Counted from the stretch's first letter, positions 56,410 to 56,855 are shown. The stretch: 64,000 bases of DNA from Candidatus Komeilibacteria bacterium RIFOXYD1_FULL_37_29 (GCA_001818495.1 MHKS01000004.1:84657-148656); one strand, 5' to 3'. Made by a program: numbers and translations. The notes: generated by a model from the sequence alone, not told the origin.

Positions 56410-56465
56410 GGCTTTGTTTTAATTATAAAATGGAGTTTCTAAAGTCCTTTAGGGGCTTTTAAAAC

Positions 56466-56850
56466 TGGTGGAGATGAGGGGTATTGCACCCCTGTCTGAC
56501 AAATGTCCTAATACACTTCTACAAGTTTATTCAATTTTGTTTTTTAAATTATTGGCTCTAAAATTGACAAAAAACCAATAATCGAGTTGGTTGGGAGTTT
56601 TGAAATACTAATACCAACTTATAGTATTTCTAGCCTGAATAAATGACGCTTCTAGTTAATTTCAGGCACATTAGCCTAGAAACGGTCGAGGCACAATATT
56701 AGGCCAAGACTGGTGCAAAGCTAGGAACTCTGAAGAGCTCTTTTACTTTGGCAAAAGTGTTTTCTGCACTTATTTTATGTAATTTTTGCGAGATTACTAA
56801 CTCCACTTGCGATATATCATTTCATTTGACATCAAATAAAAAACATCCCC
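56466..56850 (-). ncRNA. ssrA: tmRNA (ssrA), standard one-piece form, immediately downstream of smpB
   Basis: On the minus strand the 5' end GGGGATG pairs with the 3' end CATCTCC-A-CCA. It has a G3-U70 wobble (alanine identity) and a T-arm AGGGG-TGCAATA-CCCCT. Length about 385 nt. The candidate tag ORF ends ...PSFAPVLA then TAA. Confidence 0.6.
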
Positions 56851-56855
56851 TTAAA

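Follow-up and report, generated by a model that had tools for sequence, protein, structure and literature searches.

We examined the region between smpB and infC in the window, the term used here for the whole 64,000-nucleotide stretch of DNA that was analysed. Three genes follow one another on the minus strand at this locus:

56856..57308, minus strand: smpB, 150 amino acids, encoding the protein partner of tmRNA (NCBIfam TIGR00086 and NF003843; PDB SmpB structures)
56466..56850, minus strand: tmRNA gene (ssrA), standard one-piece form, 385 nt (Rfam RF00023, model positions 1-374 of 374)
55876..56409, minus strand: infC (IF3), the next gene downstream, with a probable ATT start at 56409..56407 (NCBIfam TIGR00168, 139.2 bits)

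The upstream gene was identified with equivalog models that matched over their full length: TIGR00086 scored 152.3 bits, above its cutoff of 119.1, and NF003843 scored 159.3 bits, above its cutoff of 130. Comparison of the gene product with the PDB matched solved SmpB chains at E-values down to 1.6e-32. For the downstream gene, in-frame ATG, GTG and TTG codons are absent before the conserved N-terminus, and the in-frame ATT follows a stop codon at 56421..56419. ATT, ATA or ATC stands at the equivalent place in 13 relatives (within L002-L016 of the loci introduced below), and a non-ATG start is the classic non-canonical start of IF3. The order smpB-ssrA-infC is kept across the clade, and in the window infC is followed by rpmI and rplT.

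The gene between these two was located by covariance-model search of the whole 64-kb window. RF00023 matched at 122.7 bits, well above its gathering score (47), and since the E-value over the whole window is 1.8e-47 a chance match is ruled out. The model for permuted (two-piece) tmRNA, RF04321, reached only 16.7 bits against 47 and was rejected. RNA position n, as used below, corresponds to window coordinate 56851 - n. A preliminary description of this DNA had proposed a tmRNA on the minus strand between smpB and infC and had suggested a covariance model as a check; the full-length RF00023 match fell on this strand and at this place. The extent given there, 56410..56855, holds for the gap between the protein-coding genes, whereas the tmRNA gene proper occupies 56466..56850. 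Its reading of the gene ends, the acceptor stem, the encoded CCA and the distance from smpB was correct throughout: the minus strand reads GGGGATG at 56850..56844 and AGGGG-TGCAATA-CCCCT-CATCTCC-A-CCA at 56493..56466, and G1 lies 5 nt (TTTAA) past the smpB stop codon TAA (56858..56856). The gap had also been called free of ORFs, and indeed no ORF of at least 60 amino acids is present in it; small ORFs of 31-43 amino acids occur on both strands, one of which (56699..56806, minus strand) includes the frame ending ...PSFAPVLA-TAA to which we return below.

For comparative analysis, related loci were fetched by SmpB, with each GTDB species represented by a single genome. L001-L019 are the closest relatives, with SmpB identities of 87-59%; these MAGs bear the labels Candidatus Komeilibacteria, Parcubacteria or Patescibacteria group, and some TPA MAGs among them have implausible 'Gammaproteobacteria' labels. 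The host of the window is a Komeilibacteria-like Patescibacterium. In L002-L020 smpB is followed directly by a full-length Rfam match to tmRNA, and L001 ends inside the gene. We aligned 19 clade members with MAFFT (alignment A1) and used this alignment to evaluate a secondary-structure model, for which the nested helices of Rfam were transferred to the window RNA and the second stem of each pseudoknot was added by inspection. The elements of the model, in RNA order and with the number of pairs that changed on both sides, are as follows:

56844..56850, minus strand: acceptor stem, 5' strand GGGGAUG, RNA 1-7, including G3; invariant in 19/19 relatives
56805..56831, minus strand: helix 2, 5' strand, RNA 20-46; 13/22 pairs changed on both sides
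56779..56803, minus strand: pseudoknot 1, H3 RNA 48-50/59-61 and H4 RNA 54-58/68-72; compensatory changes in 5/5 pairs of H4
56685..56710, minus strand: helix 5, RNA 141-143/164-166 and 146-148/159-161, with the stop codon in its loop
56633..56684, minus strand: pseudoknot 2, H6 RNA 167-175/196-204 and 178-181/191-194 (11/13 pairs), H7 RNA 184-189/213-218 (4/6 pairs)
56586..56630, minus strand: pseudoknot 3, H8 RNA 221-228/242-249 (7/8 pairs), H9 RNA 233-237/261-265 (5/5 pairs)
56532..56582, minus strand: pseudoknot 4, H10 RNA 269-276/296-303 (8/8 pairs), H11 RNA 285-291/313-319 (4/6 pairs)
56497..56526, minus strand: helix 2, 3' strand, RNA 325-354, then G355 A356 C357
56477..56493, minus strand: T arm, stem AGGGG/CCCCU RNA 358-362/370-374, with the 7-nt T-loop UGCAAUA RNA 363-369 (56482..56488)
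56466..56476, minus strand: acceptor stem, 3' strand CAUCUCC RNA 375-381, discriminator A382 and encoded CCA 383-385

The model comprises 95 pairs, and its single non-pair is a U·U in helix 2a. Standard pairs occupied 91.5% of the cells in A1, compared with 37-47% when the 3' partners were slid by 1-3 columns, and 60 of the 95 pairs had changed on both sides; none of 500 shuffles reached the observed values. Compensatory changes were present in both stems of each of pseudoknots 1, 2, 3 and 4 as well as in helices 2 and 5, while the acceptor and T stems did not vary at all within A1. The 7-bp acceptor stem GGGGAUG/CAUCUCC contains, at RNA 3/379, the G3·U70-type alanine identity pair that had been read from the sequence at the outset, and this G3·U379 pair is likewise found in 19/19 relatives. 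Because pairing is conserved and maintained by compensatory change, we conclude that the complete canonical tmRNA architecture, rich in pseudoknots as initially expected, is present and under selection. In one relative, L009, the loop of pseudoknot 4 contains an insertion of ~44 nt (TCAATCCACGCCTTTGGCGGGATTGATCCCGCAATATGCGGCGA) at ~3255..3300 (A1 columns 295-338), which is relatively rich in G+C.

The covariance-model alignment also placed the resume codon of the tag, just after pseudoknot 1:

56699..56767, minus strand: tag frame, resume codon GCA at 56767..56765 (RNA 84-86), 22 codons encoding AENTFAKVKELFRVPSFAPVLA, stop codon UAA at 56701..56699 (RNA 150-152)

The stop codon lies in the loop of helix 5. 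This is the frame ending ...PSFAPVLA-TAA, which the preliminary description had held uncertain as a tag, and a frame of 22 codons at the same place with a TAA end was found in all 19 relatives, with the consensus A-[KE]-N-x-[FLIV]-A-K-[VA]-[KR]-x-L-F-x-V-P-x-[LF]-[SA]-P-V-[LV]-A. Variation was concentrated at third codon positions, where 20 columns were variable (summed entropy 20.6), as against 10 and 9 columns (7.7 and 5.8) at the first and second positions. Moreover, invariant residues showed synonymous changes, with A6 encoded by GCC, GCG or GCT and A22 by GCT, GCC or GCA. This codon pattern indicates that the tag frame is under purifying selection. Related tags were reported by ARAGORN in distant relatives (L022 and L034), that of L022 being AKNTFAKVKAAFSMPAFAPVVA. 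Among the Patescibacteria loci examined, tags are as a rule long and end in ...LA, ...VA or ...FA, so that an ending other than ALAA is normal for the phylum.

Upstream of the tmRNA, the coding sequence of smpB itself contains a promoter-like element:

56979..57008, minus strand: sigma-70-like promoter inside smpB, TTGACA at 57008..57003, an 18-nt spacer and TATACT at 56984..56979 (11/12 consensus matches)

The element lies ~128 nt upstream of tmRNA G1 and would yield a leader of ~120 nt. Across 19 smpB genes, 42 columns combine an invariant amino acid with a degenerate codon, and a single codon is used in only 7 of them. Six of these 7 are GGC-TTG-ACA (codons 100-102) and GTG-TAT-ACT (codons 108-110), exactly the codons of the two hexamers, and synonymous variation is seen in 35 of the remaining 36 columns with an invariant amino acid. 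The probability of such a coincidence by chance is ~1e-6 (36 / C(42,7)), which is to be read as a post-hoc figure. Related hexamers are kept in the more distant loci L022, L034, L045 and L021. Codons 100-110 of smpB thus probably have an ssrA promoter embedded in them, and a promoter frozen into smpB codons would make a clean small case of dual coding constraint.

These observations bear on the possibility that the region is transcribed only as the 3' UTR of smpB, or as the 5' leader of infC, and yields no separate stable RNA. Such an arrangement would be in keeping with the mere 5 nt between the smpB stop codon and G1; in addition, a minus-strand scan detected no intrinsic terminator between the CCA and infC, and the three genes may share transcripts. 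However, the full tmRNA fold is conserved together with its encoded CCA and an RNase-P-type 5' junction, and so is the promoter inside smpB. Co-transcription followed by processing is, moreover, compatible with a mature tmRNA and does not constitute an alternative to it. We therefore regard a mere untranslated region as highly improbable.

The one respect in which this tmRNA departs from the family concerns the two loops that meet at the elbow of the tRNA-like domain. In addition to the T-loop listed above, two segments are relevant:

56838..56843, minus strand: D-loop analogue UUUUUU, RNA 8-13, with no G at the site of E. coli G13 G14 (E. coli numbering)
56832..56837, minus strand: AUUUGA motif, RNA 14-19, corresponding to E. 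coli A15-A20, the SmpB-contact segment (E. coli numbering; contacts from PMC8363625)

Aligned position by position, E. coli G13 G14 A15 U16 U17 C18 G19 A20 correspond to U12 U13 A14 U15 U16 U17 G18 A19 of the window RNA. In tRNA numbering the T-loop reads U54 G55 C56 A57 A58 U59 A60. The typical elbow nucleotides, UUC at T-loop positions 54-56 and GG in the D-loop, are accordingly absent, with UGC and UUUUUU in their places. The pairs that lock the elbow, G13·Ψ342 and G14-C343 in E. coli, equivalent to G18·Ψ55 and G19-C56 of tRNA, are thus missing on both sides. The tRNA-Asp and tRNA-Arg that we aligned from the same window retain GG and UUCGA, and the elbow change is therefore specific to the tmRNA. 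The divergent T-loop TGCAATA, pointed out in the preliminary description, is real and extends through the lineage: the 19 clade members share the form YGYRAUN, with G55 and A58 in every one of them and mostly U at position 56, and a D-loop GG is present in no sequence of the clade (clade A).

We asked how the two loops vary together in the SmpB-anchored tmRNA sample (plus the window), which is unbiased with respect to the RNA. D-loop GG occurred with U55 in 42 sequences and with G55 in none. GG was absent together with G55 in 23 sequences, namely the 19 clade members and L042, L049, L050 and L056, and absent with U55 in three (AG in L027, UG in L038 and L048). Put differently, tmRNAs with a UUC T-loop had GG in 42/45 cases. 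L042, L049, L050 and L056 form a second Patescibacteria group with acceptor GGGGUUG, D-loop ..UAG.. and T-loop UGCRAUU, and since they add to the 19 clade members, the first D-loop G has been lost together with the change of U55 to G in at least two lineages. The D-loop of L027, also UAG, stands beside a canonical UUC T-loop.

An exact-pattern scan further recovered the variant T arm and acceptor strand in 97 metagenome contigs, and all 88 of those with a recognisable 5' end lacked a D-loop GG. Among 87 distinct sequences the one clean signal was that a single G left at the G14-equivalent position, D(-3), went with C56 in 8/8 cases, which suggests that the two elbow contacts were lost stepwise. 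[quoted passage not shown] Associations of D(-1) with T60 (A-U, U-A) and of D(-3) with T56 were considered as pairings and rejected: in the window's clade one side varies and the other is fixed. We regard them as phylogenetic structure, since pairing is not proven by associations that phylogeny confounds.

The breadth of this pattern is difficult to reconcile with a sequencing or assembly error, or with an insignificant mutation of a single strain. The exact combination of UGCAAUA with a UUUUUU D-loop does occur in no other retrieved sequence, the nearest relatives having UGUAAUA or UGUGAUA. However, assemblies made independently at many sites repeat the pattern of a YGYRAUN T-loop with a D-loop that lacks GG, and C56 is present also in L017 and in many metagenome sequences. 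An artefact or private mutation is hence the least probable of the explanations that we weighed, and the variant elbow is taken as a property of the lineage.

The same two loops account for the behaviour of ARAGORN, the other type of search suggested at the outset, which did not support the gene: on the native window it reported four tRNAs only and no tmRNA. Among 60 related loci it made no call for L001-L019, and most of the more distant loci were called. We edited the loops in silico and found that converting the T-loop to TTCGAAT, or TT of the D-loop to GG, was sufficient by itself to restore the call of a 385-nt tmRNA with the same 22-residue tag. Single-base edits (G55U alone; UG, GU or AG in the D-loop) were insufficient. 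Since restoring either loop rescues the call, the miss arises because both altered loops jointly bring the score below the threshold, and it is no evidence against the gene. ARAGORN also misses loci outside the window's clade: L042; L038 and L048, which have a D-loop ..UUG.. with a canonical T-loop; and L047 and L051, where both loops look canonical and the miss has another cause. A tmRNA database published in 2025 lists 111 bacterial taxa that had to be rescued by Rfam matches, ARAGORN/BLAST having been unsuccessful in over half of their genomes (PMC11915505). That paper neither names this lineage nor discusses the loops; the window's lineage is plausibly among the 111 taxa. Annotated by ARAGORN alone, genomes of the lineage appear to be without tmRNA, although covariance models find the gene easily.

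A decaying tmRNA pseudogene, with damaged loops and with ribosome rescue left to other factors, would also be rejected by ARAGORN and would have lost the canonical elbow nucleotides on both sides. Since the interaction of D- and T-loops in E. coli has been reported to be needed for SmpB binding (PMC3968760), a tmRNA without both partners might be expected to be impaired, unless the loss is compensated. Yet the architecture has been kept in 19 genomes, with SmpB identity down to 59%, and in the 97 metagenome contigs. Every helix is maintained by compensatory changes, the tag frame always has 22 codons followed by TAA and is under purifying selection, and all 19 SmpB-anchored genomes have G55 and A58 in the supposedly damaged T-loop. 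In addition, smpB is intact, and the codons of the promoter are frozen. Decay of the gene is thus very unlikely. Nor does the altered elbow exclude membership of the tmRNA family, because the family already includes natural tmRNAs in which this T-loop position is G: those of Caulobacter crescentus and of the mitochondria of Reclinomonas americana have G at tRNA position 55, the equivalent of E. coli U342 (Burks et al. 2005, PMC1168896). All available defining tests point to the standard tmRNA family, and the sole typical feature that is missing is the canonical UUC/GG elbow pair. We conclude, with a probability of about 96%, that the locus is a functional ssrA gene for a tmRNA of the standard one-piece form, and that it belongs to an uncultured, Komeilibacteria-like bacterium of the Patescibacteria (CPR).

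With the canonical lock absent, the elbow is presumably held by SmpB and/or non-canonical contacts. In the E. coli cryo-EM structure, a pocket formed by A15, U17 and A334 accommodates Trp122 of SmpB, and G19 stacks on Leu90-92 (PMC8363625, Guyomar 2021). Numbered via E. coli ssrA, A356 of the window RNA corresponds to A334. The equivalents of three contact nucleotides, G18 (E. coli G19), U16 (U17) and A356 (A334), are invariant in A1, and A14 (A15) is A in 17/19 sequences and C in the other two. On the protein side, seven positions of the clade SmpB (19, 47, 56, 65, 111, 114 and 146) are conserved inside the clade and rare in relatives with a canonical elbow. Two of them fall at residues of interest in the E. 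coli protein, as Leu114 occupies the position of Trp122 and Thr111 that of Lys119; leucine and threonine at these positions would adjoin the D-loop pocket. The substitutions are compatible with co-adaptation of SmpB and the variant elbow, though they do not prove it.

Taking both sides together, the tRNA-like domain of this lineage may have abandoned the near-universal G18·Ψ55/G19-C56 lock in favour of another tertiary arrangement, evolved together with SmpB, in which the invariant G55 has a new role. We offer this proposal tentatively and would sooner bet against it than for it. Were it true, the lineage would amount to a natural experiment on what trans-translation needs of a tRNA elbow, including the contacts with RNase P, EF-Tu and the ribosome. 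The variant tmRNA and the clade SmpB substitutions in any case provide a ready-made system for asking what role the elbow plays in trans-translation. A full-text search of the literature on CPR, Patescibacteria or Parcubacteria returned no description of this variant tRNA-like domain.

From these features a course of events can be proposed. Transcription of the tmRNA would start at the promoter in the 3' part of smpB, or result from read-through of smpB; cleavage by RNase P at G1 would remove the leader, and the 3' CCA, being encoded, would already be in place. AlaRS would charge the RNA with alanine by way of G3·U70 and A73, and SmpB, bound to the conserved AUUYGA/GAC elbow core, would enter stalled ribosomes as part of the complex. 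Translation would then resume at GCA, add (A)AENTFAKVKELFRVPSFAPVLA and end at UAA in the helix 5 loop, and the hydrophobic ...PVLA end may serve as the degradation signal. Both alanylation and trans-translation activity are thus predictions made from sequence.

In most respects the window gene resembles E. coli SsrA. The two share an acceptor with G3·U70, A73 and CCA, a 5-bp T stem with a 7-nt loop, a stem-less D-loop followed by the AUUYGA motif, helix 2, pseudoknot 1, a GCA resume codon, pseudoknots 2-4, a tag stop codon in the helix 5 loop and an adjacent smpB. Unlike in E. coli, the D-loop has no equivalent of G13 G14, and the T-loop is UGCAAUA rather than UUCAACU, so that no Ψ55 is possible. 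The tag has 22 amino acids and ends in PVLA, as opposed to 10 amino acids ending in ALAA, and the gap between smpB and ssrA is 5 nt, with a probable promoter inside smpB, compared with ~214 nt in E. coli. The Caulobacter crescentus (two-piece) and Reclinomonas americana (mitochondrial) tmRNAs with G55 are permuted or mitochondrial forms, whereas the window gene is one-piece. The second Patescibacteria group (L042, L049, L050 and L056) also couples G55 to loss of the first D-loop G, the first elbow contact being altered there to A with G55; however, these RNAs keep the second G and C56 and have probably retained a G19-C56-type pair, and in the window's clade neither G is left. Mycoplasma tmRNA tags are said, in work ascribed to Gur and Sauer in 2008, to be long and to be read by Lon. 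The window tag is similar to them in exceeding 20 amino acids, in its hydrophobic C-terminus other than ...LAA and in belonging to a bacterium with a reduced genome, but there is no sequence similarity between the two. These comparisons leave the understanding of the locus as a normal ribosome-rescue gene pair unchanged. The lineage is a case of conserved, two-sided loss of the canonical D-loop/T-loop contact in tmRNA.

Several further observations were made in the window and in the related loci. A ClpA/ClpB/ClpC-like AAA+ ATPase is encoded at 21454..23925 (below the curated NCBIfam cutoff), and a PilB/GspE-like ATPase at 34844..36580 was likewise below cutoff; a VirB4-like ATPase at 11532..13454 and ORFs for RecG and LigA were above the curated cutoffs. 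Three large plus-strand ORFs at 899..4270, 26017..28470 and 28604..30889 (1123, 817 and 761 amino acids) had no NCBIfam match at E <= 1e-5. At 53548..54816 (plus strand), an ORF of 422 amino acids encodes a fusion of two parts: residues ~33-290 form an EamA/DMT-type transporter region, and residues ~305-422 a riboflavin-kinase-like C-terminal domain that matches the C-terminal half of RibF, all matches being below curated cutoffs. In L020, the complete tRNA model (positions 1-71) extended over 129 nt at 132..260 with 47.6 bits (Rfam), implying an insertion of ~55 nt; ARAGORN made no tRNA call there, and the region may represent an intron or insert in a tRNA gene. Finally, a tight cluster of tRNA genes for Ser(UGA), Arg(GCG) and Ser(GCU) lies on the plus strand of the window at 19578..19846, in which tRNA-Ser(UGA) with its CCA abuts the 5' end of tRNA-Arg without any spacer (19665/19666).
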